Shown in pieces: positions 1-30,400 of a stretch of DNA of 33,313 bases. Location: contig NW_019091356.1 of assembly GCF_001949145.1 (NCBI RefSeq), forward strand, positions 2,081,746 to 2,115,058, given 5' to 3'. The stretch comes from Acanthaster planci. Lineage: Eukaryota. The translations under genes and the position numbers were made by a program. A model generated the notes under the pieces. It saw only the letters and a program-made list of their open reading frames with translations. It had not been told where the DNA came from and did not search any database. Numbering within the stretch: the first letter of the stretch is position 1; each line of letters begins with the position of its first letter.

Positions 1-638
1 CACCTTGTGGGAAGCACAGTGAAAAGATCCCCATTTATTGGACCAAGATTCGGCCCAGCTTACCCACTGAGAAACAACATTGACAGGTGGGGAGGAAGGA
101 GGCATGTTCCAACAAGATTTGTCCAGGATTGTAGTATGGTTATCTGATGAAGGCATTCTGAAAAATTCCAATTTTTACACTTGCTGTAACAACTGAACTA
201 TTATAACTCATCTCAAATAATCCTATTGTTATCCCTAAATCAGTGTTTTAGTCTGAAAACTCATGATATTGTTATTTTGTAACATTTGGAAATACATGTA
301 CACAGCTATAGAGAGGTTGAAGGTAGGAATCACTGTGATCCGACCAGGCCACAGGCAAATAGGCTAGATTTCTCACCATGGGGAATCCCCGTAGCACGCA
401 ATGCACTGATCTAAAAACAGCACACACACCATGGCTGTGTTATAAGAAAACTGAACCATGGGCACGAGACAGTCCTTGGTTCATTGTGTCAATGTGTATT
501 TATTTATGCACAGATCCAAAGCATTTTGGGTATATACATGTATGTATTAAGGGTATGAATCATCAACTTATGTCCTGTCATTGAGTCACGACTTGGAGCA
601 GAATTTGTTCTTCCCAAGTGGGTGTGTTTGTTTTCAAG

Positions 639-1100
639 GTCCCAAAATTAAGCCCTAATAACAAAAATATTAACTGGGAAACTGTATTGATGGAGATTTT
701 CAAACAAGAGGATAATTACGGCTGGAGGACAGCATTAAAACACATTGTTAGCAACCAGCACATATCTGACACTCATCACCAATACCTTGAGCTTCACAAC
801 TGTGAAGACGTCGAATATGTTGAATATCAACTACTGCAAGCCTGGGAAAACTCAACTTGGATTCTCTATCATCACTGGCGGGACGGTGCGAAGGACAGGT
901 TGACCAGGATACTCCAAAATAACGGCAAAACAAACTTGGTGGAACTGGTGCAGGGTATATCAGATGACAACAGGCAGGGATACGCTTGGTTGAAACTTGT
1001 GCTAAAAGCACTACGCATCGAAAACAGGGTGGAGTGGTCAGGACAGCGCATTATTGCAGATTATCATGCCGCACGAAAGCTAAAGCAGAGTTACCTATAA
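639..1100 (+). CDS. AID/APOBEC-like deaminase paralog 1, terminal coding exon (C-terminal Trp-rich region only; no deaminase core visible in the window)
   Basis: Aligns by eye to the C-terminal halves of the 6572-7333 and 14683-15648 proteins: NWETVLMEIFKQEDNYGWRTALKHI, YQLLQAWENSTWILYHHWRD, NRQGYAWLKLVLKAL, RIIADY. A splice acceptor gtttgttttcaag ends at 638 in phase 0, so the track's GTG start at 618 is probably intronic. Confidence 0.7.
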   Translation, partial: VPKLSPNNKNINWETVLMEIFKQEDNYGWRTALKHIVSNQHISDTHHQYLELHNCEDVEYVEYQLLQAWENSTWILYHHWRDGAKDRLTRILQNNGKTNLVELVQGISDDNRQGYAWLKLVLKALRIENRVEWSGQRIIADYHAARKLKQSYL

Positions 1101-1384
1101 AGAGTTACAACTGGTATCCATATGCTGTAGCATTCTATTGCACATGCAGCGTACAAGGATGACCTCTTATACCAGTTTTGTAGTTGAAATAACACTTTTC
1201 ATTAAATAATGGTCTGAAAGACCATGCACACCATGTTAGCCCTGGACCCCCCATACATTCATATGCAACATTTGAAAAATTCCATTTTCTTAACTTTGTG
1301 TAAAGGCCAAGCACTTGGTCAAGTTGTACCTTTCTCTGACAGATAATCTAATACCTACATGTAACTGTCTGATATTCAAATGAT

Positions 1385-1685
1385 GCAGCGGGTACCGCGA
1401 ACTATTTTCAAGATGTATTTTTGCGTTGGGGAGATGGGTACCCGCTGCTTCATTTGACTCGGACCGGCCAGCCGACCCCGGCAAGCTCGGTGCTTGAGAG
1501 GTTAAGACGTCTGCACTAGTAAGCAGGAAGTCGTGGGTTCAAGTCCCACCCGAGTAAGCTTGTGAATTTTTTCGCAAGCTCTCGGACAAGCACTGAGCAT
1601 ACAGTGTTTATTAATACATACGTTGGGCGAGGGCAAAACCCGGTATAAATTAACATCTCCCCATCACAAAAATACATCTTGAAAA
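1385..1685 (+). mobile_element. tRNA-Thr(AGT)-derived repeat, copy 1, with inverted 5' segment
   Basis: tRNA-like core at 1485-1555: GCTCGG/CCGAGT acceptor stem, CTAGTAA anticodon-type loop, GGTTCAAGTCC B-box. Segment 1385-1436 is the reverse complement of the element's own end/start junction. Related copies at 3655-3922 and 28731-28957. Confidence 0.7.
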
Positions 1686-2818
1686 ATTCTACACACTCAT
1701 ATAGAACTCGGTAATAAAGCGCCAAACAAGACTCTTGGCACTGTGAAAACTTAAAACAAATAAAGCTTGAAATGAAAATATCCTATTTGCTTTTCAGTAT
1801 CTATCCTTCCAGTGCACTTTAGAAATGCTGGAACTTTTGATCCATTTTACTTTAAAAACAAATATGAGAGTGGTGTATGGAACAGAGTGATATCTCACTG
1901 ATCTGTGAAATTGCTGGTCATGCATGGTCGCCTGTTAACTGGCTAAACATTACTGTGCACATACTGAAGCTGGAAAGTACCTCGGTGAGAAATGTCATTC
2001 ACTGGATTCTAATGTGCGAAACAATCTTTCAAGCCCCGCCCAATAATGATGACATCAGTTTAAATAGCTCACTAACTGCACATGCAAAATTATGGCCTAC
2101 TTGTCAAAATTTGTCAAATTTGGACACCAATTACGTAGACGTTTCTGTACATGGGGCTTCCCCCTCCCCCAAAGTATAAGTTTTGCAAGACTGACTGTCC
2201 CTGCAATTTTACCCATGAAACCCCTACTGTCTTTCACATTCCAACTTCTTATCATGCTTCTGCTCATAAATCATCTTCATTAGCATTTTCCAACAAACGT
2301 GTGAAGCTGTGATTAGCGGCAACTTCAGTAGTAAGGTAAGGTTTCTATTGATACGTGATAACAAATTTATCTTCAAGCAAACTTGACAGTAAAGAAAGTA
2401 AAGGGAACTGTGCACGCTTTCCATAAAAAACAAACAGTAACACCAATGTACCACAATTCTGCTATTTTATCTAGGGTGCATGGGAATTATTCGTGTTTTA
2501 ACTGATTTTAATAGCAACAATAACAACAGGGCTTACACTAAGAAAGGAAATTGTTCAGATTGTAAGTGCGTTTAAACACGTGATGATCAACATGGGCAAA
2601 CACACCACTTTTGAATCACGCAGATGTGTATTTGCTTTTAGCGTAAAAATTGCACAAAACATTCAGTTAGAACAATGCATAACACAGGGTTTGATATGAA
2701 CTGTGCAAAATGGTTACATCACACTGCTTGTTGCTATGGATCGACCAATCAGAATTGAGAATTTAAGTCTGCCTGAAGTGTAATATTTTGAACCGTTCAT
2801 AAAACGCCTTGAAAAGCT
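1438..2818. repeat. Segmental duplication, copy A
   Basis: Near-identical to 3676-5519 except that about 485 bp (4587-5071) is absent here. Ends at a single N (2819). Confidence 0.9.
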
Positions 2819-3654
2819 NATTGTACTGCACCTTGATGACAAGAACAGGAACCTATATCGATCATTCTAGTGTCGACCAGTTTATGGGTGGAATACTGTG
2901 AAAACCTTAAACAACTCTACACAATACCGTGTGGTATGCACCCATGGTCAAAAGCCCAGAGACTGTACCCCTTGGACAGTGTTAGCCTATTGGAGTAGGC
3001 CTATATTGACATACACAGCATGGGTAAGAGGGTTACATTACAAGCAAGACTAGGAAAACGAAAACAAAAATCAGCAGCGATTTTACTGTACCCAACATCT
3101 TAAAGCTAGAGAACACCGTAAATTTGGGATCATCCTACTGAACAGGACTGGACATGTCCAGTTGTTTGCTGTCCGTTTATGAATCAGTGCAGTGACACCA
3201 TGGAGAGTCCACCCATTTAAAGCTATAAATGTACATGAGCAAGACAAAATCACAAAACGCTCCCTACACCAATGGAATATTCCCGTTACTCATTTTATGC
3301 TAATGAGCGGCATGTAGGGCTAAATCCGGCCTTGTGATTGGTCGAGAGGCTGCGAAAACTTGGCAGAATATTCTGGCCAGACCTTGGGCACTACTAATGT
3401 GTCCCTAACTCATTTTCATAACTAGAAATCACTTTAGTGTGATCATACTGTTGATACTCAAAAACGATATCAAAGCCACTCCCAGTCATAACTGTAATTA
3501 TTACACACACACACACATGTAAAGGCCAATGTGTACATAAGGCAAGCTGCTTACAGTGCAGTGCGGCATAAGAGAGGGAAATACAGTTCCTTGGTGCAGT
3601 CTGGCCTGTGCCTACTGGATCAGTCTATTGAAAGACTAAATTCTATACAAAAAG

Positions 3655-3922
3655 TACATCTTGAAATAGTTCGCAGTACTCGCTGCTACACCTGACTCGG
3701 ACCGGCCAGCCGACCATGGCAAGCTTGGTGCTCGAGTGGGTAAGACGTCTGCACTAATAAGCAGGAGGTTGTGGGTTCGAGTCCCACCCAACTAAGCTTG
3801 TGAATTTTTTTGCAAGCTCTCGGACAAGCACTGAGCATAAAGTGTTTATTAATACATACGTTGAGTAAGGGCAAAACCTGTTATAAATTAACATCTCCCC
3901 ATTGCAAAATACATCTTGAAAA
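3655..3922 (+). mobile_element. tRNA-Thr-derived repeat, copy 2
   Basis: Same core as copy 1 with B-box GGTTCGAGTCC. Bounded by the direct repeat tacatcttgaaa at 3655 and 3910. Confidence 0.7.
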
Positions 3923-5519
3923 ATTCTACACACTCACGTAGAACTCGGTAATAAGGCACAACACAAGACTCTTGGCACTGTGAAAACTTAAAACAAATAA
4001 AGCTTGAAATGAAAATATCCTATTTGCTTTTCAGTGTCTATCCTTCCAGTGCAGTTTAGAAATGCTGGAACTTTTGATCCATTTCACTTTAAAAACAAAT
4101 ATGAGAGTGGTGTATGGGACAGAGTGATATCTCACTGCTCTGTGAAAGTGCTGGTCATGCATGGCAGCCTGTTAACTGGCTAAACATTGCTGTGCACATA
4201 CTGAAACTGGAAAGTACCTCGGTGAGAAATGCCATTCACTGGATTCTAATGTGTGAAACAATCCTTCAAGCCCCGCCCAATAATGACATCAGTTGAAAGA
4301 GCTCACTAACTGCATATGCAAAATTATGGCCTACTTGTCAAAATTTGTCAAATTTGGACACCAATTATGTAGATGTTTCTGTACATGGGGCTTCCCCCTC
4401 CCCCAAAGTATAAGTTTTGCAATACTGACTGTCCCTGCAATTTTACCCATGAAACCCCTACTGTGTTCCACTTTATAACTTCTTATCATGCTTCTGCTCA
4501 TAAATCATGTCCATTAGCATTTTCCAACAAACTTGAGAAGCTGTGATTAGAGCAACTTCAGTAGCAAGGCAAGGTTTCTATTGATAGTTTTACTCGATCA
4601 TTCTGGAGAAAGAGTAAAATTTCCTTTAGGACTAGGCAACTGTAAACTAACAAAAACTCTTCCAATACAGGAACATTTGCAATGCAATTATAGCTATTAC
4701 ACCAGATTCACTTTAAAAAAGATGGAACCCTTCCAAAAGCACATAAAAGGTAATTTTTACTAAAAATACACATTTTGTCTTCCTGGTGTTTTGGGGGGAG
4801 GGTAATAAATTGCCTTTTCAGTGTGGACAATTTTTCATTCAAATTAATGAAGTATTTTGATAATTCTCTCAAACTAAAACATTTTAATCCCATTGAAGTT
4901 GACGAACTAGTCCCCTCGGGAACTAATATCAACAATTCAACCACAAACTGTATATTAGTTATCACACGAGCGTGAGTTGAACACGAAATAATGTTGTGCA
5001 TGTGTCCGGTATGCCAAATACCGAGTGGTATACAGGACACAGATGCACTACATTATTCTTTGGTCAGTGAGCGTGATAACAAATTTATCTTCTATTTTAT
5101 CTATAAGGGAACTATACACGCTTTCCATAAAAAAGAAACAGTAACACCAATGTACCACAATTCTGCTATTTTATATAGGGTGTATGGGAATTATTTGTGT
5201 TTTAACTGATTTTAATAGGAACAATAACAGGGCTTACACTAACAAAGGAAATTGTTCAAATTGTAAGTGCGTTTAAACACGTGATCATCAACATGGGCAA
5301 ACACACCACTTTTGAATCACGCAGATGTGTATTTGCTTTTAGCGTAGAAATTGCACAAAACATTCAGTTAGAACAATGCATAACACAGGGTTTGATATGA
5401 ACTGTGCGATATGGTTATATCACACTGCTTGTTGCTATGGATCGACCAATCAGAATTGAGAATTTAAGTTTGCCTGAAGTGTAATATTTTGAACCGTTCA
5501 TAAAACGCCTTGAAAAGTT
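3676..5519. repeat. Segmental duplication, copy B
   Basis: Near-identical to 1438-2818 and ends at a single N (5520) at the equivalent position. Confidence 0.9.
4958..5080. mobile_element. Fold-back (palindromic) MITE-like element
   Basis: Termini gttatcac...gtgataac. Internal arm aataatgttgtgcatgtgtccggtatgcca is close to the reverse complement of tggtatacaggacacagatgcactacattatt. Confidence 0.55.
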
Positions 5520-5685
5520 NGTAATTGGTAGTTGACCCTTCACTCACACTGACAGTGAGGGAACCCTCCCAGGAGATGCTGACATCTAATTTAAAATTTG
5601 TGTTGCCATTAAAACCTTTCATTTTCCTCCCCAGCGACACAACTGTCATACTCCACATAACTGGTTTTTTTTGCTTCTATTTCAG

Positions 5686-5774
5686 AAGATTTTCTGCCGG
5701 GATTTCGTTCACCTCTGCTAAGGATTCGGAGGTTTCTGTCCTGATTTTTCTGGAGTACTCCTTTCTCTGAAAAG
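5686..5774 (+). other. Candidate upstream (probably 5'UTR) exon of deaminase paralog 2
   Basis: Strong acceptor tttttttgcttctatttcag before 5686 and donor aag|gtaagg after 5774, about 260 bp upstream of the gap that holds the paralog-2 N-terminus. Confidence 0.4.
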
Positions 5775-6571
5775 GTAAGGCATCTATGCTTTTTTTTGTT
5801 TCTTTTTTTTATATTTATAAGTACATTTTATTTGAGAGGGGTGTAATTTCTCTAAACTTTCAAGAACACATCTCTTTTAAGAAAATCTAACACCATTTAT
5901 CTGGAAATGCAACACTTTATTTTACAGGATATTTCATCGAGACTTTCTTTATTGATGTTCTGTTTCATTCCACAGTTATACTTTGCAATGTGGATAAAAC
6001 AGCTGAATATTAGAAAATTGGAAAAATTTCACAATTNNNNNNNNNNNNNNNNNNNNNNNNNNNNNNNNNNNNNNNNNNNNNNNNNNNNNNNNNNNNNNNN
6101 NNNNNNNNNNNNNNNNNNNNNNNNNNNNNNNNNNNNNNNNNNNNNNNNNNNNNNNNNNNNNNNNNNNNNNNNNNNNNNNNNNNNNNNNNNNNNNNNNNNN
6201 NNNNNNNNNNNNNNNNNNNNNNNNNNNNNNNNNNNNNNNNNNNNNNNNNNNNNNNNNNNNNNNNNNNNNNNNNNNNNNNNNNNNNNNNNNNNNNNNNNNN
6301 NNNNNNNNNNNNNNNNNNNNNNNNNNNNNNNNNNNNNNNNNNNNNNNNNNNNNNNNNNNNNNNNNNNNNNNNNNNNNNNNNNNNNNNNNNNNNNNNNNNN
6401 NNNNNNNNNNNNNNNNNNNNNNNNNNNNNNNNNNNNNNNNNNNNNNNNNNNNNNNNNNNNNNNNNNNNNNNNNNNNNNNNNNNNNNNNNNNNNNNNNNNN
6501 NNNNNNNNNNNNNNNNNNNNNNNNNNNNNNNNNNNNNNNNNNNNNNNNNNNNNNNNNNNNNNNNNNNNNNN

Positions 6572-7333
6572 TCACCCTGTTCTGAGTGTGCTGGAGAAAT
6601 ACTGCAATATGCACAAACCTATTCTGACATTCAATTCACCTTTAAATTTGCCTTCCTCTATCACCCAAACCAATGGGCCCACCACAAAGGGTCAGTGAAA
6701 CTAATGAATGCGCCAAACATCACTCTGGAAGCAATGCAAGGGAAGGACTGGAAAGTAGTTATACAGAAGATTCTTGAATATCACGGGAGGAGATACTGGA
6801 GGACAGTCTTGGACCAAATTCGACAGGTGCCTGGACGGGAAGTCTTGGCGCAAGAGATTCTCAGATGTCACGGGGGAGATGAATGGGACATTGTCTTGAG
6901 GCAGATTCTGAAGTATGAAAGTCGACAAGGCTGGAGAATGGCATGTTCACAAATTCTAAGACACAGTGCTGAAAGGGAGGCTGAATTGGAAGTGTTTCTC
7001 CAGGGTCTCAGAGATCCCCTTATCTACAGCACAACGGCCAAAATGGTCCACACGTATCAGCTACATGTTTGGGAGCAATCAAGTAGAATTCTCTATTATC
7101 ACTCTAGGGATCGCATGTACAATAAATTGACTCAGAGTCTCTGGAACTGGGGGATAGAAAATCTTAGCGCTTTGGCTTCCATGATGCCCCATCATCACAG
7201 AAAGAGTTACACTTGGTTAAAGCTGGTGTTAAGTGCATTAGGGATTGAAAAGAGATACATCTGGCCAGGGCGGAGAATGATTGCAGATTATGTCACATTA
7301 TGCACAAAGGAGAAAATGCAACATATGCGTTGA
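6572..7333 (+). CDS. AID/APOBEC-like cytidine deaminase paralog 2 (5'-partial; N-terminus in the gap 6037-6571)
   Basis: The frame of ORF 6695-7333 stays open back to the gap edge and reads SPCSECAGEILQYAQTYSDIQFTFKFAFLYHPNQWAHHKGSVKLMNAPNITLEAMQGKDW. This is the SPCxxC zinc motif plus downstream core elements, colinear with paralog 3, followed by W-x15-W repeats and RMIADY. Confidence 0.85.
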   Translation, partial: SPCSECAGEILQYAQTYSDIQFTFKFAFLYHPNQWAHHKGSVKLMNAPNITLEAMQGKDWKVVIQKILEYHGRRYWRTVLDQIRQVPGREVLAQEILRCHGGDEWDIVLRQILKYESRQGWRMACSQILRHSAEREAELEVFLQGLRDPLIYSTTAKMVHTYQLHVWEQSSRILYYHSRDRMYNKLTQSLWNWGIENLSALASMMPHHHRKSYTWLKLVLSALGIEKRYIWPGRRMIADYVTLCTKEKMQHMR

Positions 7334-7756
7334 AACTAGATCAACAGCCATTATTTTCTTTCATGCCCGCATGTGCATTTGTGCACAAAGTTTGTAACCA
7401 CGCAGGTTTCCATGTACATGCACCATATTATAAGAATACATGTTCATGTATATACATACTGGTAACATAGTTGTGGGAGCCTGCGTGTTTCACATAGATC
7501 TGGATCTCAATCAGTGGTCCCAATGCTGGTTCCCACCATCCATTTGGTGGATTCTGGTGTCAGTGAACCAACTGATTACTGATCTACAGAAGATCCATGT
7601 GAAACAAACACGCAACCAGTCACAACTCGATATCCCCACGACTCGCTACCCAATTTCCAGGGTGTACATTGTGTCTCTGCCCCATAATTTTGAAAGACCT
7701 TTAGCCTGTTCAGTGGAATTACCCACAAAGATTTTGTTCTGGTTGACAGTTGTAAA

Positions 7757-8660
7757 GAAGTGATACCCTCTAATTTTAGAGCTGCATATTAAAAATAGTT
7801 AATGGTTTATGTTCACCGTCACCTTCAGTAGAAACTTGCTAAACAGTAGAAAAACTAGAAATTCAGTCATTTTCAAAATATAAGGTTATGTGACGACTTT
7901 GAATGATTTTCTTTTACAACAAACTTTAGTTCACAGTTCATAACATTCATTATGATGTACGGTTTATTAGTCCAGTGAGCCTTTTCTGCTTTGCCTCTTC
8001 TAAAGAACTCCTGCAAGTTGAAATATCAAACATTAATACACTACTTACTATTGACATTTTCTGCTGCCAAACAGGTTTAACAGCAATCCAAAATGCACCC
8101 AAAATTCTGGAGACAATTATTCATCTTTGCNGTTTTTATACATTTTTTCTGTGTTTTCCAATGGTATAACCAAACTCTTCTCAGAAGGTCGGCAAGTGGG
8201 AGGGGGGGGAGTTCCCACAGGGGTCAATTGCCCTAAACCCCTCCCCGGACTTCTGAGTTTGTATTGTGGACAGCTTTTTCAAGAACGTTGTAGACGAGGT
8301 CAATGTCTGCACTGAAGTAACTGGTTATCAACACACTAAAAATGGTATGGTGACAGTTCCCTCCCCCATTAAAAATTTTCAGTAATTTTCAGTTTTTCAG
8401 AGAGGGTGCAGGGGAAGAAGCACCACAGGGAGGGACAGTTCCCCCAACACACGCACACAGCTACGCCACTGCCATGTTTATAAGATCTGTAGGAGAATGT
8501 ATTCAAATTCTTATGTACAATTATGTGTGTTTTTAAATATTCACTCTTATTAATATCCCTATGAGAATTTAAATATGGTTGAGGAATAATAACTGGGTCT
8601 TTCAAGTGTAGTAATATATTCCTGAATAAAAACTACTTGAAAAGTATACTTTTTTGTCTT
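7757..8660. repeat. Older degenerate local duplication, copy 1 (copy 2 about 9609-10520)
   Basis: Shared blocks aagaagtgataccctct...gttcaccgtcacctt...gaaacttgc (about 7757 and 9609) and cctatgagaattt...atggttgaggaataat...caagtgtag (about 8558 and 10399), with an offset of about 1.85 kb. Confidence 0.75.
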
Positions 8661-11600
8661 TTCTCAACTCAACTTAGCTTTGGAAAATGAAGTCAATTTT
8701 AACGATGACCCAAAACATCAAATAAATCAACAAGTGGTCTGTGTATTGCTCATTTCCTCATGAGCCATAACCTTTACCAGAACTGCTGGAATGCCATGAA
8801 ACCCCAATCACATGACTGCTTCTTTGTCCCCTTGTTTACAGTAGGCCATTCCAGGTGCAAAGTTGTGCACGCATGAACCCATCTAACAAAGAACTGATAT
8901 GGTGAATAGGTTGATGCTGCAGTGGAAAGTTCATCTGCATGTATGAAGTTGACTATAAAACGGCAAATCTCATCAAAACATTCGAGTTGCATAACAGCAT
9001 TTTTGCAAGTCCCTCATGCTGAAAACTGGGATGCTGAAAACTGCTCCAATCAGAAACCAGCAATCCTGGAAGTCCCTCCCATTAAGACATCACTAGAAAG
9101 AACTGCCCAATTACAGCAGGGATGCTGGAAAATGCTCCAACACATCGCTATTACTTTCAGGGACGTGGCCACTCTTGATTGGCCACCTCAAACTGTGGGT
9201 AAGGAATAAATACCATTGCCGCTGTCTACTTCCCAGCAGTTTCAATCAGAAATCCAAGGCACATCAAACCAACACGTATGTGACACAGCGATACTTTACC
9301 ACTATAAGAGCCCCTAAAAAGACTACCTTCTCATCTGTTTTGGACGTGTTGCTTGTTCCTGGAGAGAAAGGTAAGCATCCCTCATTCTTTGAAATATCAC
9401 TCCTGTAGAAAGGTGATAATTTTTGCCACGTAGGGCACTGTAAATAGCCAAGGGGGGAAATCTCACCAAACCCAGCTTGGGTGGAGCAAAATGAGAAAAA
9501 CAAGATTATATTCACATATGTACCAATAAACAAGCTGAATTTAAGATTCTCATCATTTTCCAGCCAAAAAAGGATAGTGCTTTGCTCACTTATCTGACAG
9601 AGTGCTGAAAGAAGTGATACCCTCTCAGTTTAGAGCTGTACATTACAAAGAGTTAATGATTTAAAGTTCACCGTCACCTTAAGTGGAAACTTGCCAGATA
9701 GCAGAAAGCCCCTGCCCCATTGCTAAAACAGGAATAGTCGTTTTCAACATTTTGCATGATTTTCTTCTACCATGCACTTACGTTGATGGCTCGCGGCATT
9801 CGTTATAGTTTATGTTTCATTAGTCCAGAGTGAACTAATGTACTCTACCTCTCCTAAAGAACAGCTCCATACTTATACACAATGTATTACTAACGTCATG
9901 CTGCTGTAGAACAGGATGAAACAGTGTAGTGTTCGTTGTGTAGATTGACAGACAAGCACGCAGATCTGGGTTCACAGTGATTGTAATATCTCAACTCACA
10001 GAGAGGTCAAGCTGTGACCTATGGTGTCATAATACATAATGAGTACATGTATGGAGTGCCTGAGAGACAATACCACAAACAGCGATTCATAAATACCTCA
10101 GACATTCTCGCAAGCCGAAGTGCAACTTGACCATGTATTGATAATGCCCACAGAGAAGTGATAATGCCTGCTGCGTAATTTACACACTGGCAGCTGGATA
10201 CAAGACAGATTACTTGATTCTGATTGGTCAAGAGTGTGTATGGACAATTTGCACAAGAAATATTCCATAAAATGGATGGGCTCTTAGGAAAGGAAGAAAT
10301 TCATCTGATGTTGACTTCTTTTGACTCTGGCTAAAAATGTATGCACATGTATATGGGAATAAATGTGCGCTTGTTGGTCGGTGCCCGGTCTTAATTGTCC
10401 TATGAGAATTTTAAGGGTTTTTCTCAATGAATGGTTGAGGAATAATTATTGAGTTTTTCCAAGTGTAGCAATATTATTCATTAATAAAAAACTATGTTTT
10501 GTCTTTTCTCAATTCAAACTTTTGTCCTTGTAAAAAAGCACTAGTACTGTCATCATAACCTAAAAAAGAAACCTGACACCTAACAAGGAAATGATACGAC
10601 AAATGGGTTGATGTTGCAATAGAAGGAACAGCTTTGAAATTGGCTGCACAATGACATGTCTTGAAAACTACCCATGCAGCAAATCACGCCCACTATGATA
10701 TCACTGGAAAGCATGGACCAATCACATCGGCGACAGTGGTAACATAGCACTGTTAGCATTTTAAGTTGCAGAGTGTGAGAATCCCCTTTTGGTACAGGGA
10801 ACTCAAAATTGGAAGTGTCGTCAAAGTGCACAAAAAGTTTTGGGTCTCCGGCTGTTCTTCACCTTTCAGAGCTTACTGGCATTTCCGAATTTGCTGGCCT
10901 TTTAGTGCATTTCTTACACTACTACTGAACAATTTCATCATCACTACAATTGTGAACACATATTTAAACGTGACATAATGGAGTCTCTTGAACTGTCTGT
11001 TGGGTTTCACGTTACAAATGCATGCATGAACAAAAAGCTCATTTACATGCATTTAAGACGGGTCAATTTTGTGTGCTACAGGGAGGACAGTGACAGGATC
11101 TGTCTTCTGAACGCTTGAGGAAAATTAAGAAATTAAGATAAACTGATGAACCTGTGTACAAAGAATTAAATGAGGAATGTCTCATTGCAGAGTTTTGCAG
11201 AGTTCATTTTATTCGCTCTTTGGGTTTCGATCTATAGTAACATTACCTTGGTTCAAGACAGACGCTCAGTGCTTATTTCTCTCCTTTCAATGCGTGTTTG
11301 GCCTTATGCATGATCCATCTAAGTGTAGGACACATGGGCGTCAAATACTTTTCAAAATCACGAGAGCATAACATTGATTAGAAGTACTGGTAACATGAAC
11401 ACCAAGCCATTACATCCAGGGGGCCAGGGCTCACTTTAGGGCCTGGAAAATTTTTCATTCTATGTTTTGACATGCAATCTAGGGCAATTAGATCACTTTA
11501 ACTTCTTTTTCTTAGCAAATGGTTTGGCAAAAAAATTTTTATTTCTCACATAATTTTTATCTGAATTATGGATCAAATGCAGGCCTACTCCCACTACTTT

Positions 11601-12291
11601 TATTTATTTTGGGTACGGAAGAAAAGTGAAGTATGGTAAGATATGCCCCCATCCCACTTTAGAAAGTACCCCACACACACACACCCAAGTGTGTAAAGGC
11701 CTCCAATCGTGGACTCCCTATTGTTCCACTTTTGTTCATACTTAAACATTTTCGGAAGACCTCCCATAAGTTTTGTACACATTTTTCAACCGTGGACTCT
11801 TCGGCNNNNNNNNNNNNNNNNNNNNNNNNNNNNNNNNNNNNNNNNNNNNNNNNNNNNNNNNNNNNNNNNNNNNNNNNNNNNNNNNNNNNNNNNNNNNNNN
11901 NNNNNNNNNNNNNNNNNNNNNNNNNNNNNNNNNNNNNNNNNNNNNNNNNNNNNNNNNNNNNNNNNNNNNNNNNNNNNNNNNNNNNNNNNNNNNNNNNNNN
12001 NNNNNNNNNNNNNNNNNNNNNNNNNNNNNNNNNNNNNNNNNNNNNNNNNNNNNNNNNNNNNNNNNNNNNNNNNNNNNNNNNNNNNNNNNNNNNNNNNNNN
12101 NNNNNNNNNNNNNNNNNNNNNNNNNNNNNNNNNNNNNNNAGACTTCTTTTGTGCAGAGGTCCACACTATGTATGTCATGCCTGCACACACTGACTGAGGC
12201 CCACAGGTAGGATAGACCTACCACACACACACAGTGGCAACACTACGTCAGATGTAAAGTGGGAATCTGATTTTCCTTTTTGTTCTTGCAG

Positions 12292-12331
12292 CCCTGAACA
12301 GACAACTTGTTGCTCACTCCTGGAGAGAAAG
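12292..12331 (+). other. Candidate 5'UTR mini-exon of deaminase paralog 3
   Basis: Acceptor ttttcctttttgttcttgcag| and donor aaag|gtaagc. Its 3' end and the start of the downstream intron are paralogous to 9357-9500. Confidence 0.5.
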
Positions 12332-12349
12332 GTAAGCACTCTGACCTCT

Positions 12350-12568
12350 TCAACACTTCATCGAGCCAATCCCTACATCTGGATCCTTCTCTACACTATA
12401 TGAGCTCCACTCCCAGTCAGAATCCTGCAGTCTCCTGAAGACGGACAGAGTACACTGTTTGAAACGTCTATATTCCCCACACATACTCAAGAAAGAGACT
12501 GATACCTGGTGTCACCGCAATCGTTTTACTCATCTAGTTTCATTCACCATGAAAACCTTCAAGTCTTA
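12350..12568 (+). mobile_element. Penelope-like element (pLTR) fragment with 12-bp target-site duplication
   Basis: Flanked by an exact actctgacctct at 12338-12349 and 12569-12580. Contains a hammerhead core and ends in catgaaaaccttcaagtctta, which resembles PLE 3' termini (recalled, not searched). Confidence 0.65.
12428..12474 (+). ncRNA. Minimal type I hammerhead ribozyme motif (possibly degenerate)
   Basis: CTGAAGA (12435-12441), C, stem II GGACAG/CTGTTT around loop AGTACA, then GAAACGTC (12461-12468) with palindromic ACGT and a GUC cleavage triplet. Stem I is only partly paired. Confidence 0.55.
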
Positions 12569-13886
12569 ACTCTGACCTCTATTACTTAAAATTACACTCT
12601 TTTGACAAGGCAAATCAATTCAAAGCTATGTACCATGCTTACAGAAAATCTGGGGGGGGGGAAGCAATTCCCAACAAATGCAGCTTGGGCACTTGAGGCA
12701 AAATGAGGAAGAACATTTGATTCTCAATTGAATTTGATGATTCTCAATTTTCCCTGTCAATATAGATATTGCCTCGGAAGGGAATCAAACTTGTTTGGAG
12801 TCAAAACATTTTTGGCTTCATTCGCAAGACAGAACACACAGGAAAAAAAAAACTGCACGCTGTGAGCTACATGCTGAGCAAACTGCCATGAGAGACTTTT
12901 TGCTCATGGATACTGCTCCTGTGTGGAATCACTTCAAAAGTGTTTCTGATCGAGAAAAACCAATTTAATAATTTGTTTCTCTGCCACGGCATAAAACTTT
13001 TTAACAGGCACAAAATTCCGGTCAAACTTGTGAAACAGCATCATTAAAGTCTTACTGGTTAGCAATGGACCTCAAATCAGTACAATTACTTGTATCTGGA
13101 TTCTGCATGGACACTTTTAAGGACATATCCGTTTTCCTAATTCAAAACTACTTTCATACAATAATAGCACTTCAAACGCTTTTCCATTAACTTTGCAATC
13201 CTCTTCAAAGTTTATCTTGACCCAGTTTTGCCACATGAAAATACATGTACTCAAAATCACCCCTTCCTTTTTATGCATACAAAACAAAGAAAGGAGTTCC
13301 TTGTATATTTAACTCTGAAACATCCAAATTTAAAGTCATTTGTATCACATTATATCACTTATTATGATATATGTGACCTGGTACATCGTAATCAGGAATA
13401 AGTCACTGAGACCATTTTACGTAATGGTCGAGTAAAGGGGGTTATGTTGAAAAAAAATCGATGAGGCAGTTTCTGTATATTTTGGAAGTGTATGTATGAA
13501 AGGTCACCATCAACACACTTGCACTGTGTACCATTTGAAAGCTTGTGAAATGCTCTTTCAGACCCTGTACATATCTCAAAAAGTCAATTTGCAACTTATT
13601 CCTGTTTTCGATGTACCATGTCACATATTTTGGGGTGGGGGTGGCAAACCCCAATTGTAAAGCATCAGTCTTATCTCCAAATACCAAATCAACTTCTTTT
13701 ATTCTTAAAGAAATTTTGTTCTGATGGTGGACCAACAGCTTGCTTTCAACAGCTTTCTTTTTACTTTTGCCAAACATCCACTATTTCGCAGTTAAAGAAA
13801 TTGACAAGTGAACGGAATTAAGAATTTTTTTTGTTGCAGTCACTAACTCATCATTATGTATTGTTTCTACCATTGAAATCTGACAG

Positions 13887-13939
13887 AACGTGAGTTATAT
13901 CCTGGGAAAGTCTCCAGAGTCAAACCAGCAGTCGTAACA
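13887..13939 (+). other. Candidate 5'UTR exon of deaminase paralog 3
   Basis: Acceptor tctgacag| and donor aca|gtgagt, upstream of the acceptor (cttttcacag| at 14654) that opens the coding exon. Confidence 0.35.
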
Positions 13940-14109
13940 GTGAGTTGAATGTTTTCATTTATTTTGAATCAATGTAAATGTCTCTTAAATTGTGATTCTA
14001 ATGCATTCATTTTACATGTCATTTAACTCAACACCTCAGTTATTTCTTATTTCAATTGAACTGTATGCATTTTAAATGGCAAAAACGCTATCCGTGAGCC
14101 CCTTGATAA

Positions 14110-14410
14110 TAATTTATTCATATTTATAAAGTGCAAATCTCACAAAGATATGTTCCAATGCACTGAAAAATAGAGACAAACTGTAGTTGAGCTGATCTGG
14201 CAGCCGCCAAACGACCCATATCCACTCACATTTGTGGAGAGGAGACATTACGAAAAATTTAGTTTTAAAGGTGGGAGGAAAACCCCACAGAAGAAATTTC
14301 TGGGTAACATCCACAGAACTGAAAACCCAATCCACGCGTGAACCAAGCTGGGAATCAAACCCGGGCCGCAGAAGTGGAAGGTGAGGAAAGACTTACCTTG
14401 CTAACCTGAC
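14110..14410 (-). mobile_element. Degenerate tRNA-derived SINE-like element (boundaries approximate)
   Basis: Minus strand has a B-box-like ccgggtttgattccc (about 14350-14364) and an AT-rich tail near 14110-14130. Confidence 0.35.
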
Positions 14411-14682
14411 GGCCCTTCTGTGCCTAGAAAGGTGTGTACATGTATGTGTCACACACTAAGGATGGGCAGGAATTTTGTTCAAATAATGGCTTGCTTTAGA
14501 ATAAGATTAATCATGCTGACTTGCTTCCATTATTGAAGACCTGATTTCAATCCAAACTCACCACTCTGCCTACAAAAATTAGTCTTGATGAAAATACCAT
14601 TTCCTCTGTACTCTTCTTAGAGCATTTAATCATGCAATTTGATGCTTTTCACAGACCTTACTAAAGCTACATAGCAAGCAGG

Positions 14683-15648
14683 ATGGACGAGCAGATTAAG
14701 AACCATGAAGGGGACATTACGGTCTTTATTGATTCATGCCCTTTGGGCTGTACTTGGCCAAGTGAAGTTATTTTGCTAGGCAGGGATCACATTTATCGCA
14801 ATAAGCCTCAGGAGGTACATGCTGAGAAAAAGTTTTTGGATGCGCTTGAACAAGACGTAAACGATGAGGAGGAGCAGGAATTCATCATATTCCTGAATTT
14901 TTCTCCATGCAATGAATGTGCCACAAAAATATGCAGATTTTTGACTGATCACAGTGAAGTGACATTTGAGATTGCATTTGCCCACGTTTATACGGGCTAT
15001 AGACATGCAAACAGGGAGGGGCTGAAAAAGTTACATGACCATAAGCGCATTACACTGAGAGCACTGAGGGGTGAAGACTGGAAGAAAATAATAAGACTTA
15101 TCCTAGAGGCACACGGATGGGACGGATGGGATGATGCATGGCAACAGATTCAGCCAAATCTAGAAGACTGGGAGAAGATAAAGAGAGAGATAGAGGAAAG
15201 CATTGGGGGACAGCAGGGTGATGACTGGAAGGAAGAATTTCGCAAAAAAATCCAACACAAGCCTTGGCCAAGTCATTGGTTACAGGACCTAGAGGAGATA
15301 ATAACAAGATATGACCACAATGAGTGGGCTTATGAAGTTGGGGAGTTGGTATCGGGAAGTGAGGACGTGTGGTACCAGGCAAAGCAGAATGAAGTAATGC
15401 AGTATGTGTATAATTATGGTCGAGACAGTGTTTCAACCATACTGAATCATTTAGAAGGCCCAGATAATGAAGAAAATAGAACGGGTTATGCTTTTCTGCT
15501 ACATGTGCTTGAAATCTTGGGGAAAAATCGGCCGATTAACAAACTGCGGAAGCGCATTGTTGCAGACTATGTGGCACGAAAGGAACTTGAATACATACTG
15601 CAAAAACAAGCACAAGCACAGGCTGGAGCTGCAGCCCAAGCCCTCTAA
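14683..15648 (+). CDS. AID/APOBEC-like zinc-dependent cytidine deaminase paralog 3, complete single coding exon, 321 aa
   Basis: YRN (N40), HAE (H46/E48), FLNFSPCNEC (C76/C79), FEIAFAHVY, NREGLKKL and ITLRALRGEDW form the canonical APOBEC-fold motif series. An in-frame TAA just upstream within the same predicted exon supports this ATG as the start. Confidence 0.93.
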   Translation: MDEQIKNHEGDITVFIDSCPLGCTWPSEVILLGRDHIYRNKPQEVHAEKKFLDALEQDVNDEEEQEFIIFLNFSPCNECATKICRFLTDHSEVTFEIAFAHVYTGYRHANREGLKKLHDHKRITLRALRGEDWKKIIRLILEAHGWDGWDDAWQQIQPNLEDWEKIKREIEESIGGQQGDDWKEEFRKKIQHKPWPSHWLQDLEEIITRYDHNEWAYEVGELVSGSEDVWYQAKQNEVMQYVYNYGRDSVSTILNHLEGPDNEENRTGYAFLLHVLEILGKNRPINKLRKRIVADYVARKELEYILQKQAQAQAGAAAQAL

Positions 15649-15730
15649 TCACACACTGTATGAGCCCCAGCCACAGCCAACCAATCAAACACTGAATGAG
15701 CCACAGCCAACTAATCATACACCTGAATGA
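15634..15730 (+). repeat. Degenerate 27-33 bp tandem repeat spanning the stop codon of paralog 3
   Basis: About three units of cagcc...aatca(c/a/t)acac(c)tg(t/a)atga. Confidence 0.6.
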
Positions 15731-16089
15731 AGATGTCTCTTACTGGGAACATTGCTACACAGCATGCAAAGTTTCACTTTAATAGAACAAGCAACAGATA
15801 GGAGCCTCAGAGAATTTGTGGCCGGGCGGATAATTACTTTCTTCACACTTTTCTGCAATCACACCCATCTCAAGGCCAATATACGATAATCTTGTCCAAT
15901 TTCAAAGAAAAAGTAAGATGTACATACAGCTCAATTTAAAGAAAAGGGAAGTTTGCACACAATTGTCATCCACTTACAAATGCAGCAATAAGTGTAGTAA
16001 ACACAGCATCTTTAATAACAATCTGGAAACAAAACAAAATTTGGTCCTTCTAACCTCTTTTGTTCATTTATACTACTAGCTTTTACAGA

Positions 16090-18250
16090 GGACATGTAAC
16101 TGGTCAAGTTTAAAAATTACTAAATGCCATTTCCACACACAAGGTCGCCTAATGTAGTTCAGTGACAAGGAGAAAAAACTTGTTATCTGAGACTCATGTT
16201 GTCTGAATTATAATGTATGTTAAAATTTCATGATGGTTTTAGAATGGAGTGAAATGGCTTACCTTTTAATACTGGAAAGACATTTTAGTCTTGAAGCAGT
16301 TAGCTAAGATTGTAAAGATTCCTATATCAGCACGTATGCAATGCTTTCCTTTTAGATTAATATGTAAAAATACTTTTCAAACTTTGCACGTTATATCAAA
16401 AAAGTGCGTAAAACTTGACAATTACTAATAAAAAAGCTGAACTTAGTAATACAATTAGAACATTGAGACAAAGATCAGAAGCAAGAAATTTTACAATATG
16501 TTTGATTAGTCTGATTATATTTACATATGCTTAACAGTAGTATCAGTGCCATTACTCAAGCAGTACAGTAAACTCCGACTATTAGTCAACATCGCGTAAC
16601 CTGCCATATTGTCCAAGTTGGCCGTTTGACCAAAGTCCCAATCGTCTGTAATGCATTTCCAATCAAGATTTCATTCTAAGTCGGCTTTTATACGACATCA
16701 TTTCGTATAATATGTCGGCATGTTTTTCTCGGTCCCTTTTCCACAAAACCACAAAAATTCCTTTATGTCAGTCAGTATTAAAAAAAATCACGCTTCGGTA
16801 TCAGTTTCCTTCGCCACGGTTGCCAAGAAGTGTCAAGTGACAAGTTCCACGCGCGTGCGGCCAGCACGAGTTCATCAATACCAGTAACCCCTCTTGTGCT
16901 ACACGCATGCGCTCTGTCCATTTTGGGGGTCGCCTTATTAATAATAATTGAGAACGAATTTGCTGGGATCAACCAGAGGTTAAAATAAACCAGGGTAAAT
17001 CAAAGCCATTGAATTTGTGTAAGGAATCATAATGTACATAGGCAATACATGTGCAAGTTGCCAAAAAGATGACTTGTAATACAAGCCGGCATTCGTGTAA
17101 GTCGTCATAATTTCTTGAGTCCCAAGAGTGTCATCTTAGCCAGAGTTTACTGTAGTTGGTAGTTGTATGTTTACATAGACAATAAGACACATAACTGGCA
17201 AAGTTTCTAATCGCTTTGTGCTTGTTTTCCACAAGAAAGACTTAAAGAGAGTAATTCGGTGATTTGGGGGGGGGGGAAATTTGTTTGTTTAGACTTAACA
17301 GCTTGAATTTTAAGGTATATTCAAAGTGTCACGTATTAATTAAGCTGTAGTTGGTAGTTGAACCTTGTGCTTCTCTATCAATAAAGTAATCAGAGTTATC
17401 AGTAATTGATTACAACTATTATACATTTTAGGATAAAAGCAAGGCGTTGCAATCATTTGTGCCTAAAAGTCAACTTTGAAGCCACTTTAACACATTGTTA
17501 TTTCTGTCAAATGATACTTTAAAATCTTGAGTTAAAGACGTTACAACTTCTTTCAAAGGATGCAAAGTTCCCAGGTTTAGAGTATTTTGAATGGCAAGAC
17601 ATGTACACTTCAGTACCCACATAGCGGTGCATGTATATTGAGAATTACTACTGAAAATCCCTAACTAATTAAATCAATGAGAAAATTTAGTCAAAGATCA
17701 AAGGCGAGAAATTATGCAAACTATTTGATTAGTCTAGTTATATGTATAAGCTAAACAGTTGTATCAGAGATATCATTTATTGGTAGTCATATATAATAGT
17801 GCATAAAATATAAGGCATGTAACTGGCAAAGTTTAGAATTACTCAGTACCTTTTTGTCAAGCAAAGGTGATGTAGTGTAGTTCACTGATTACTGGAAAAA
17901 AATTGTAAGCTCAAATTGTTGCGTAATTGATGAAGCTATACTCCCTAGTTATACTTTGTGCTTCTATATCAATGCATTAAGAGTTATTGGTAACTGATTT
18001 AAACCTGTTACGCATTTTAGGATACAATACGATGTCAATCTTAGATAATGGATCTGGATATTTTGAGAGATAAAGCAAAGATGCTACAATCATACTATGC
18101 TTGAAAGCCAACTCCTAAGTCACTTTAGTACATTGTGATTTCTATCAAAAGATTTTTAAAATCTTGAGTTAAAGTGTCCCTGGGCTTTGCTCACTTTGAA
18201 GGGTAAAGATGATGTACATTTCAGCACTTATGGATTAGAACTGTGAGCAT
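16090..18250. repeat. Degenerate tandem array of about 630-bp units, interrupted by a MITE
   Basis: Recurring blocks taactgg(tc/ca)aagttt (about 16097, 17192, 17820), caaagatca...tttgattagtct (about 16469, 17692) and ttgtgcttct...aaaatcttgagttaaag (about 17365-17538 and 17957-18174). Confidence 0.6.
16566..17152. mobile_element. Tc1/mariner/pogo-type MITE
   Basis: TIRs cagtaaactccgacta and tagccagagtttactg (14 of 16 match), with TA on both sides. Confidence 0.75.
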
Positions 18251-23835: not shown

Positions 23836-24360
23836 CTGGAGGACAAAGAAAGAACACACCAGAAAAAAATGGTTTCACGACCTCTGACTCAAATCTGCAG
23901 TTTGGGTGTTAGCACAGGAATAGGATGGCGAAAGTTGAAAAAGCTGGCCAATATTTGGTTGAGGAATCTAAGGATTTTACTTTCTAAACTCCAAATCTAT
24001 TTTGACAGGCAGGTGGAAAGGCACTGCTATACAAGTACCCATAAAAAAGGAAAAAAAATGCTGTCTTCATCCTTCACGGGAATTAAGTAATCTGTCAAGA
24101 TGCAAAAAGAAACATGCAGTGGAAGGCCCAAGATTTCATGTAACTGTCACATCATGGAGGCAATATCTTTAATGTTTTTTGTCTGCTCTTGAAAACAAGA
24201 ACACCTGAAAAAGTTGACTAAAAATTCGCCAGACCGTGGTATTACGGCCACGTTCTTTCTGTTGACGAGGTGTCTCAGGACAGATCATTTCTTCCCCTCA
24301 TTTTGATTAACAAGGCTACAGAGAAGGGCTCTACTTACCCCACGGTGCCATCCGTTTCTT

Positions 24361-24480
24361 CTAGTGGTGGAACAGGCGGACATTGGTGTGAGCCAGAGCT
24401 ATGCCGTGCTCATCGCAAGCCTGTATGATGGCCTGGTCTTGCACAGCTCCGGCCGGACTGGCGATAAACTCTACCCCACT
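24361..24480 (-). CDS. ATIC: ATIC/PurH (AICAR transformylase/IMP cyclohydrolase), last coding exon
   Basis: [39 protein letters not shown], the canonical RLFHH C-terminus. AG acceptor; 120 bp. Confidence 0.97.
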
Positions 24481-25184
24481 CTGGTCCAAAAGAACAAAAG
24501 CCATCAATAAGTTGGGTACTGGGTTACTCCACGCCAAATCGGTCCCTAAACTTCAGAACAAATTGTTGAATGACTGACTTAGATATTTTAAAACTTTCAG
24601 CATACATATACTCCACAAAGACATTTTCAGTTCCCGACTGTTATTCAAACATGCCTTGGTTTTTCAATCTTCTAAAAAGCTACGGTACGTGGACTTGTTT
24701 TCTGAGACAAAAATGCCAAAAGATCAGTGCCAAGACATTTCAAAAATTTCAACCAACATGAAACTTTGCACAAATCTCAAACAACCCCTTACAAATTGTA
24801 CATTTCACAGTTCATCTATTGACCAGAGTCATTCTGTTTGAGATAATTCAAGGTCCTCAGCTAAAACCTCTGAGAAAGATACAATTGATAACAGACTTCC
24901 TGATAATCCAAGTATCCTGAACTCGTTTAATCAAAAGAGCGACTGAATTTAATAGCGATGTTGCTACCAAGTCCCTTGTACATCATTTTGAATTGACAAA
25001 TTGAAACCCCGAAAAGTTCCATGGTGACGAGTCAGCTTTGAATCCACTCACGCCACTACTCGAAAGTCTGACAATGAGAACAGCCTCGAGCAACTTCAAT
25101 CAAGGACTACAGTTAACAACAGTTCCACTAACTCTGACCAAATGCACGCTTGTCAACGATGGATGCACTAGTCTCCGGCCTCAC

Positions 25185-25280
25185 CTGATGAGCACGATCG
25201 ATGTTGTCACGGAAGGGGAAGAAGGCATCCGAGCTGAGGGCCACTCCCTTCAGTTTGGCCAGCCAGTCCTTGCGCTCCGC
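25185..25280 (-). CDS. ATIC: ATIC exon
   Basis: [32 protein letters not shown] with the SDAFFPF motif. AG/GT boundaries; 96 bp. Confidence 0.96.
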
Positions 25281-26004
25281 CTTCACAGATGGAAAATGCA
25301 CAACACTCATTACAATATCATTTCCCCCAATCCGTAACAGTCCAAAATCCTCAACTTCCAATATGATTTTACGTACACCGTCAGGGTTAGGGTTAAAACA
25401 GATAAAACGTCAGCAGATTCAGTTTCACAAGTTAAATATCGCTAGGCTTATGAAAACTATTTATAAACTGAGAGTATGACCAACTAAAAGACAGACGAGC
25501 ACGCTTGTTAAGTCCCAAAAAGCCAATTCTTTTTTACCTTTTTCCAACCGAACAGTCAAACATTTTCAAAATCCAACCAAATGCAGAGCTCCAAGCAAAT
25601 TTACATATGCAGGTCTGCACAATATTTGAATTTCAAAATCAGCGAACAAATTCACCGAACTGAGAAAATTGTGGCATATCTGACGAACCGGCGAATACGA
25701 AATATCAATGTTTTCAAGAAAAACACGTTTTCAGTTGAGCAGTTATTGCATACTCATTTTTGACATTCGACCCTCTTTTGATCTGTGTCTAAAACATACA
25801 AAATTGGTCTTTGAAGTGATTTCCTAATCAGTATTTCTGGCTCTATGAGCAATACATTGAATACCGTTGCCAAACCCATTCGTCAGTTAGTGAGATAAAA
25901 TCTGGAAATCACCAGAAAGGTCAAACAGACGCCAGTTTGTCGGATATGCAATGCACTGTTCTCAGTCAACAACACTGCAAGCAAAGAAAAGAGTCGTCCA
26001 CATC

Positions 26005-26244
26005 AATAGACTGATCCATTAAGCCCCGCCCCATTGTGTTCTGACCAATCACAGATTGACGTCCGACACACCTGCACAAATGTCCAACATACTTGCACAC
26101 ACATCTGATGGCCGTGGGTGGAACAAGCAGTATGGCACTGGAGAAGAACACTCACTGAGTGCCCACGTTCACAGGGGGCTGCCCGCGTGCACAGGGGGCT
26201 GCCCGCGTGCACAGGGGGGCTGGGACTTACTGGATCTGTCTATT
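26005..26244. mobile_element. MITE with internal 20-bp tandem repeat
   Basis: TIRs aatagactgatcca and tggatctgtctatt; three copies of gcccgcgtgcacagggggct at 26161-26221. A related terminus tggatcagtctatt lies at about 3616-3629. Confidence 0.6.
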
Positions 26245-26280
26245 CGCTTCATGACCAAATAGCAAATACATGTATCTTAC

Positions 26281-26340
26281 TTCAGTCAGCTGTTCAGGGA
26301 CGGTCTGCAGAGAGCCTTCCCATGTGTCTTTATCCATGTC
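26281..26340 (-). CDS. ATIC: ATIC exon
   Basis: DMDKDTWEGSLQTVPEQLTE; AG/GTAAG boundaries; 60 bp, in phase with neighbours. Confidence 0.9.
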
Positions 26341-26721
26341 CTGAGAGAAACCGACACAAATCATTGTCAGTGATTCAAGCGAGCAGGCAAGTGAACAAGA
26401 AAGATTTCACACTTGCTGTGTGGGTTAGTTCACTCCACGGCTACTTTCAATGATATGCCCACCGTCGCTGATGAAGTTATGCCCATTCCAACTGCCACAA
26501 TACTGAACATGCCTCTAAGTTTCACAATGAGAACGATTACTTCAGAATTGTTTTCAAATGCCTTTTTCGTTACAAATCAGAATCTGTTGCAGGTTGATAT
26601 TGTTTTTTTATTGTCGTATCATGGACTGCTACCCGCAACGATAAGACGACACCTCATAAATTACACAGTACTGTTCAGAATACAACATTGGAGTTGATTT
26701 CCTGATTGTGTGTGGTCCTAC

Positions 26722-26830
26722 CTGACTAACTGTCCCGTTGACGTAGACATCGATGATGTTGGACCTCTCGGCTCTCTTGACGCCTTCCTTGAAGGAAAGA
26801 CCCAGAACTTTGGGATGCTGACGTAGCCAC
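26722..26830 (-). CDS. ATIC: ATIC exon
   Basis: (W)[36 protein letters not shown]; 109 bp, phase consistent. Confidence 0.95.
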
Positions 26831-27895: not shown

Positions 27896-28062
27896 CAGTT
27901 GTTGGCCTTATCGCCGGCCAGTCGGGTGCAGTGGATGCGCGATTGCTGGCCCGCCCCGCTCCCGATCACTTGACCGTCCAGAGCGTAGCACACCGAGTTG
28001 GACTGGGTGTACTTGACAGCAATGGTGGCCACAATCAGATCACGCAAGCCCCCTTCAGGCAA
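27896..28062 (-). CDS. ATIC: ATIC exon
   Basis: [55 protein letters not shown] with KYTQSNSV and GAGQQSR motifs; 167 bp. Confidence 0.97.
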
Positions 28063-28676: not shown

Positions 28677-28730
28677 CTATACATGGTTCAAAGGAAATAC
28701 AAGTGACTTTCAATTACGCGGGTCAAAGAA

Positions 28731-30238: not shown

Positions 30239-30400
<162 letters not shown>

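Follow-up and report, generated by a model that had tools for sequence, protein, structure and literature searches.

A tandem array of three AID/APOBEC-like deaminase genes in the starfish Acanthaster planci with a predicted helical insert in loop 10

Lop-Ech-Cni, a clade within the AID/APOBEC-like deaminases, was defined with 12 Patiria miniata paralogues, and invertebrate members form tandem arrays in sea urchins, Lingula, and Nematostella (Krishnan et al. 2018, PMC5889660). SpAIDL1-9 of a sea urchin and LaAIDL1-2 of a brachiopod are AID/APOBEC-like, multi-copy, and polymorphic, with animal-to-animal differences in expression, and some of them deaminate cytosine in E. coli (Liu et al. 2018, PMC5956068). 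SpAIDL1 and 4a are single domains of 193-194 aa and LaAIDL1 has two deaminase domains; no helical insert is described in the available part of that paper. Here I analyzed a 33,313-nucleotide stretch of the Acanthaster planci genome (contig NW_019091356.1, positions 2,081,746 to 2,115,058; hereafter the window), which contains three co-oriented deaminase paralogues, copies 1 to 3. Judged by their sequences, the three starfish copies are members of the published Lop-Ech-Cni clade. The extra 139-217 residues of these proteins and their relatives are predicted from structural models to be an insert between helices 5 and 6 (loop 10), not a tail. The array and the enzyme family are already known; the helical insert within the APOBEC fold is new as far as the literature was searched.

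The coding parts of the array are as follows.
672..1100, plus strand: copy 1, 3′ coding segment, residues 240-381 of LOC110975550 (P0128), with the end of the insert and the predicted helix 6.
6037..6571, no strand: assembly gap of 535 N, expected from the layout of copy 3 to contain the start codon and the HxE motif of copy 2.
6572..7333, plus strand: copy 2, visible coding sequence (253 aa), SPCSEC through the stop codon; Pfam APOBEC_N 43 bits (cut-off 25); 16-residue helical repeats.
14683..15648, plus strand: copy 3, complete single-exon coding sequence, 321 aa, in an exon that begins at 14655.
14818..14919, plus strand: zinc site of copy 3, HAE at 14818-14826 and SPCNEC at 14902-14919, aligned to APOBEC3G.
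15112..15531, plus strand: predicted all-helical insert of copy 3, residues ~144-283, from the model, structural alignment, and alignment occupancy.
15532..15615, plus strand: terminal R-I-x-A-D-Y helix of copy 3, residues 284-311, predicted helix 6 of the deaminase fold.

The original prediction, made from the DNA letters alone, had proposed three co-oriented homologous segments. It was found that the homology is above chance in all three pairs: the BLOSUM local scores are 217 (z 28.6) for copies 1 and 2, 216 (z 32.4) for copies 2 and 3, and 82 (z 6.8) for copies 1 and 3, each reached by 0 of 1000 shuffles. The paralogues are 26-31% identical to each other (tblastn), and all three visible frames are open up to a stop codon. 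A complete HAE/SPCNEC zinc site had been assigned to one segment and an SPCSEC motif at a gap edge to another; the former is the 321-aa open reading frame of copy 3 (H46-A-E48 and S74-P-C-N-E-C79), and the latter is copy 2, which begins with SPCSEC beside the 535-N gap in which its HxE would lie. The remaining segment had been taken for a terminal exon. Copy 1 is indeed the 3′ end of a gene, but its RefSeq protein enters the window at 672 and not after the AG before 639. This protein, P0128 (A. planci LOC110975550, XP_022083818.1, 381 aa), is 100% identical to copy 1 over 142 aa, and its catalytic core is upstream of the window. Since P0128 carries HAE and SPCHNC, copy 1 represents a full deaminase, of which residues 1-239 are encoded outside the window. 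A Pfam search for deaminase sequence in the window part of copy 1 matched 0 families.

Pfam profiles and fold matches agree with the earlier view that these proteins are AID/APOBEC-like and not housekeeping deaminases. Copy 3 lies above nine AID/APOBEC cut-offs and copy 2 above five. For copy 3, APOBEC_N scores 76.6 bits versus 20 bits for dCMP_cyt_deam_1 (PF00383), with a cut-off of 25 each; its top scores, SNAD4 with 83.5 bits and NAD1 with 82.3 bits, reflect the shared core only. Three relatives exceed the dCMP_cyt_deam_1 cut-off, with 29-32 bits. The copy 3 model matches AID at Z 16.7, versus Z 8.3 for dCMP deaminase and Z 6.8 for TadA/ADAT. The visible zinc motifs have the HxE and PCx2-4C form (HAE/SPCNEC in copy 3, HAE/SPCHNC in the P0128 protein of copy 1, and SPCSEC in copy 2). 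Copy 3 has the predicted cytosine-selecting residues N40 in loop 3 and Y103 in loop 7; the loop-7 aromatic residue is F in copy 1 and Y in copy 2. The Patiria members of the clade share with the starfish array, as far as it is visible, the motif N-Y/F-S-P-C-x2-C, and with copy 3 a WP (PMC5889660). Before the CxnC motif, copy 1 has the NYS of the Lop-Ech-Cni clade and copy 3 a conservative NFS, and this part of copy 2 is hidden by the gap. The WP before strand 1 is present in copy 3 and is RP in copy 1 and its Patiria orthologue, the corresponding part of copy 2 being out of view. No N-terminal signal peptide of the SNAD1-4 type was seen by inspection, the N-terminus of copy 3 being polar and modelled as helix 1, and the features of Lop-Ech-Zn2 (GLH in loop 1; SC and two C/H in a long loop 7) are absent in copies 1-3.

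A HMMER search against 1.84 billion representatives gave 125 matches at E 0.001. Among the 19 matches whose source was checked, together with P0128, the full-length ones are A. planci P0002 and P0003, P. miniata P0004, P0006, and P0031, and P0005; a BFVD search gave 0 matches at E 0.001. The A. planci and P. miniata relatives support the original prediction of an invertebrate genome, here that of an echinoderm. It was revealed that P0004 equals row AKZP01080573.1 of SI Fig. S9 of PMC5889660, letter for letter over the printed stretch (compared by eye), and other rows closely resemble copy 3. The name Acanthaster had 0 matches in the part of the supplement of PMC5889660 that was searched. In a 14-row tree without the 64-aa fragment P0016, all three copies and P0004 are in one branch as opposed to the Asterias-type rows (support 100/99). 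In a quick 125-row tree, built without P0016 and P0031, the asteroid branch has an SH-like approximate likelihood ratio (SH-aLRT) support of 85. The 14-row tree contains a sub-lineage of copy 3 with P0002, P0003, and P0031 (100/98) and another of copies 1 and 2 with P0004, P0005, and P0006 (92/94), in which copy 1 pairs with P. miniata P0006 (100/100). Because both sub-lineages contain both genera, the duplications of the array predate the split of Acanthaster and Patiria. Thus, the suggestion of a lineage-specific array is not supported in the narrow sense; an Acanthaster-only clade, a group chosen after the tree had been seen in order to test that suggestion, was rejected by the approximately unbiased test (p-AU 3e-67). 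The notion of an undescribed subfamily fared better in part: PMC5889660 already shows the catalytic domains of the relatives from Patiria, but the helical insert was described nowhere in the literature searched. P0003 (XP_022111674), a full-length paralogue elsewhere in A. planci, has neither HxE nor PCxxC and matches 0 Pfam families, yet it keeps the insert and the terminal helix.

The position of the insert is predicted mainly from two AlphaFold models. The copy 3 model, based on a 65-row alignment, has a predicted local distance difference test score (pLDDT) of 95.2 and a predicted template modelling score (pTM) of 0.92; the copy 1 model, based on 15 rows, has a pLDDT of 74.8. In VIA-align, copy 3 matches AID with Z 16.7, a root-mean-square deviation (rmsd) of 2.6, and 160 aligned residues (model 5-307 on AID 1007-1181), and APOBEC3H with Z 16.7 and 166 of 186 residues aligned (model 8-311 on 5-186); the best non-APOBEC row has Z 8.8. 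The copy 1 model aligns out to residue 380-381 in 50 of 50 APOBEC/AID rows among those listed. Both models align to AID and APOBEC3 structures with the five-strand, six-helix APOBEC fold over 156-166 residues at rmsd 2.1-3.3. The output of VIA-align consists of residue ranges, not residue pairs, and the helix-6 position of the terminal helix was deduced: the core, helix 5 included, runs to residue 143, yet the aligned counts and ends reach further. In the MAFFT alignment of 65 rows, about 50 rows occupy residues 291-310, and 7-25 rows occupy residues 151-290.

The region between helix 5 and the terminal helix is 139-217 residues long and is net acidic in all eight proteins measured (-3 to -49; copy 2 not included). 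A lag of 16 ranks first among 35 lags in six of nine proteins (z 3.2-7.9; 4.7 in copy 2), and additional helix-5-like units exceed the 99% shuffle level in six of nine. The insert may have grown by tandem copying of a 16-residue helix-5-like unit. At the DNA level, no 48-base repeat was found in copy 2 (best 28/45 at lag 87, and 23/45 at lag 48).

Several points weigh against this reading of the insert. Lag 16 is not the top period in copy 3, P0002, and P0003, and 77 residues of the insert in the copy 1 model are under pLDDT 50. The MAFFT alignments supplied for both models had the last helix of the short homologues set on the terminal helix from the outset, so the two models are not independent of the helix-6 placement. 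A profile of 46 short relatives fell on the terminal helix in two of nine proteins, with non-significant scores, and a position-specific scoring matrix put the terminal helix first in two to three of nine, its span not fitting four proteins in which the helix ends at the C-terminus. These sparse sequence-only matches would also suit an appended C-terminal domain, in which the first repeat after helix 5 is helix 6 and the rest folds separately, in the manner of the tails of APOBEC1 and NAD1. So would SI Fig. S1 of PMC5889660, in which the part of a Patiria member that immediately follows helix 5 is lined up with the last AID helix, and the hidden Markov model envelopes, which extend to residues 166-182 in some members. 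However, in both models the terminal helix is placed on helix 6 of structures that have been solved. The R..D motif at the end hardly varies across the family (R365, D369) while the middle ranges from 139 to 217 residues, and the short Asterias-type relatives keep the GY helix and a terminal helix with little between them. I therefore consider an appended domain unlikely and retain the insert between helices 5 and 6 as the preferred architecture.

No Pfam family matched the insert, and the ESM Atlas gave no usable feature match (template modelling score at most 0.44). The fold search, in which the insert was part of the whole model, gave only small helical bundles for it, with Z up to 6.5. Neither a description of the insert nor a paper on Acanthaster APOBEC genes was found in the literature searched, most subscription journals being outside the search. 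The printed rows of Patiria and Henricia in PMC5889660 stop at about residue 145-171, just after helix 5, with gaps in the helix-6 columns, and Table S1 of the same paper, in its available part, gives no insert for the Lop-Ech-Cni clade; the insert could be visible in the raw sequence files linked to the supplement. If the models are right, the domain boundary of the published starfish deaminase expansion would need correction, since constructs cut at residue ~150-170, as the printed rows are, would lose the predicted helix 6. The copies would also be a case in nature of a deaminase accommodating 140-215 residues in loop 10, and this loop is of interest for domain inlays in base editors.

A precedent for a folded insert near helix 5 is SNAD3, where it lies between strand 5 and helix 5 (PMC5889660). 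The SNAD3 insert is alpha+beta, cysteine-rich, fish-specific, and before helix 5, whereas the starfish insert is predicted to be all-alpha and after helix 5, and it is tryptophan-rich. The mammalian APOBEC3 locus resembles the starfish array in its tandem divergent paralogues, the same fold (Z 15-17), and a likely defence role, with 14-21% identity between APOBEC3 and the starfish proteins in structural alignments. In contrast, APOBEC3 proteins enlarge by doubling the deaminase domain and the starfish proteins by an insert within one domain. The 125-row tree separates the starfish rows from a 59-row branch with two-domain hits, whose rows are unlabelled. By the definition of PMC5889660, the starfish host excludes membership in APOBEC3, and because APOBEC3 arose from AID in eutherians, the likeness of the two arrays is probably convergent.

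What might these proteins do? The explanation that I favour, and which I hold to be rather probable, is that the Lop-Ech-Cni paralogues are likely intracellular zinc-dependent cytosine deaminases directed against single-stranded nucleic acid of viruses or mobile elements, with the helical insert in loop 10 as a likely variable binding surface for partners or antagonists. H46, C76, and C79 would bind zinc, E48 would shuttle a proton, and N40 and Y103 would restrict the pocket to cytosine. Because copy 3 has the zinc ligands, the catalytic Glu, the loop-3 Asn, and the loop-7 Tyr, C-to-U deamination of single-stranded nucleic acid is likely for it, and cytosine deamination is the likely activity of these proteins in general as far as sequence can tell. 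A loop-3 Asn or small residue and a loop-7 aromatic residue are tied to cytosine selection (PMC5889660). In E. coli, relatives from sea urchin and brachiopod cause mutation of cytosine, and bacteria induce one of these relatives (PMC5956068). By analogy, I infer that the starfish array may have an antiviral or immune role; its members would be candidate genes for nucleic-acid immunity in this reef pest and in sea stars generally. Two observations speak against the favoured explanation: not all of the sea-urchin paralogues were active (PMC5956068), and expression of copies 2 and 3 is low in sequencing run X23 and nearly absent in run X22 (depth under 2 for copy 2 and 0 for copy 3).

The surface of helix 5, loop 10, and helix 6 is an accessory surface for nucleic-acid binding or oligomerisation in A3F, AID, and APOBEC1 (PMC6073885). 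Since the starfish insert is net acidic in all proteins measured, it may bind a protein, such as a cofactor, another copy, or a viral antagonist, rather than nucleic acid directly; I regard this as a tentative proposal with slightly less than an even chance. A role of the insert apart from catalysis fits P0003, in which the active site is lost and the insert kept. More speculative, and improbable at present, is the idea that loop 10 has become a module that can expand through repeats derived from helix 5 and that works as an evolvable domain for targeting or as a decoy, made also without the catalytic core. The core-less forms would be a copy 2 splice form skipping the zinc site (see below) and the paralogue with the dead active site, and the result would be a paired editor-and-decoy system unlike the domain doubling of APOBEC3.

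P0003 would also suit a role of these proteins as conserved editors of host RNA or DNA, or as binders without catalysis, like APOBEC2 and APOBEC4, with the insert as a built-in targeting cofactor and not a defence device. The clear Patiria orthologue of copy 1 (100/100, 60% identity to P0006) indicates that at least one member has been stably kept, and the immune role rests on analogy. On the other hand, the paralogues are only 26-31% identical, the copy number is high (12 in Patiria), and 10 of the 13 listed coding variants of copy 2 change the protein, a kind of pattern read as conflict-driven in PMC5889660. A host-editing or non-catalytic role is thus of low probability, and defence against foreign nucleic acid remains the preferred function.

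Four of the 24 listed sequencing runs were compared with 5521-16500; about 18% of X22 and of X23 was read, and X16 consists of contigs of a run guessed to be RNA. Summed depth in X23 is about 11 on the coding region of copy 2 and 3-6 on copy 3, so copy 2 is the better expressed. The transcribed parts outside the coding regions are as follows.
5686..5774, plus strand: upstream exon of copy 2, lacking an ATG; putative start after the AG at 5684-5685; GT donor; X16 joints from 5774.
7334..8587, plus strand: 3′ untranslated region of copy 2, end approximate, from X23 read depth and an X16 contig at 7253-8587.
9326..9370, plus strand: non-coding exon 1 of copy 3, with five X23 junction reads, an X16 contig, and a GT donor; the start is a minimum.
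12292..12331, plus strand: non-coding exon 2 of copy 3, with ten X23 junction reads to the next exon.
13887..13939, plus strand: non-coding exon 3 of copy 3, with eight X23 junction reads to 14655, GT..AG.

The 40 variant rows considered of 134 include 13 in the coding sequence of copy 2, and eight of the ten that alter the protein are at codons 131-199. A replacement-to-silent ratio of 10:3 is about the neutral expectation. Because the ratio is near neutral and another paralogue could be the source, these variants show no selection. The ratio would also fit a partly decaying array, in which some haplotypes have copies 1 and 2 damaged or can do without them, and copy 3 is the sole stable gene. 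So would the entry of P0128 into the window without a canonical acceptor and an X16 contig that is one base short at 7016, where copy 2 has a run of C; the loss would cause a frameshift within the insert. However, this loss was found neither in X23 reads (depth 15) nor in X1, all three visible frames are open to the stop, RefSeq has a full 381-aa model of copy 1, and copy 2 is better expressed than copy 3 in X23. Such decay is therefore the least probable of the alternatives, and I continue to treat all three copies as genes.

The open frame of copy 1 spans 585-1100. There is no AG acceptor at 672, and tblastn found no family homology in window bases 1-671. The sequence at the junction (640-675) ends in AC at 673-674. 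The junction at 672 may reflect an AT-AC or other non-canonical intron, an insertion, or a fault in the assembly. Of 284 candidates, two are longer relatives of copy 1, namely P0128 and P. miniata P0006. An SPCGKH look-alike of a zinc site at window 1-20 had no tblastn support from P0005 or P0006 and was judged a chance match.

For copy 2, 0 full-length proteins were found among 116 candidates. X16 contigs have joints 5774->6572 and 5774->6690 (GT..AG, intervening letters not known), and neither joint was found in the raw reads of X22 or X23. The 5774->6690 joint occurs in a single X16 contig (depth 15.5) and would leave out the zinc site of copy 2. The resulting form would begin with a Met in frame at 6704, right ahead of strand 5. 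P. miniata P0031 and the fragment P0016 start at nearly the same position.

All X23 junctions of copy 3 (9370, 12292-12331, 13887-13939, and 14655) are GT..AG, and the non-coding exons lack an ATG. Since an in-frame stop lies at 14662-14664 in the same exon, the start codon is at 14683. Exons 1 and 2 of copy 3 (9337-9379 and 12305-12339) have a near-identical 3′ end and donor, to which the copy 2 exon ending at 5774 is weakly similar, and 7754-7852 matches 9608-9707. These likenesses may point to older duplications of the flanks. Around exon 2 (12109-12840), very high X1 DNA depth and many loose ends indicate a high-copy repeat. A frame with LHAEQ at 12741-12968 was considered as a fourth copy and rejected: it has 0 Pfam families and no family tblastn match and lies inside intron 2 of copy 3. 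Two cysteines, C19 and C23, are present in loop 1 of copy 3 (14737-14751) and also in P0002; they could form a second metal site or a disulfide.

Outside the array, a multi-exon ATIC/PurH gene (AICAR transformylase/IMP cyclohydrolase) is on the minus strand at ~24360-31853, convergent with the cluster (Pfam PF01808, 70.5 and 55.4 bits; the last exon ends RLFHH-stop). It may serve as a synteny marker when the array is sought in other starfish. A local tandem duplication lies between copies 1 and 2, 1438-2816 and 3676-5517, with 89-96% identity, each unit having a tRNA-like element at its head. Rfam gave three weak tRNA matches (31.8-39.7 bits), at 1484-1557, 3722-3794, and 28779-28851, within a dispersed repeat of ~170 bases that is likely a tRNA-derived short interspersed element.

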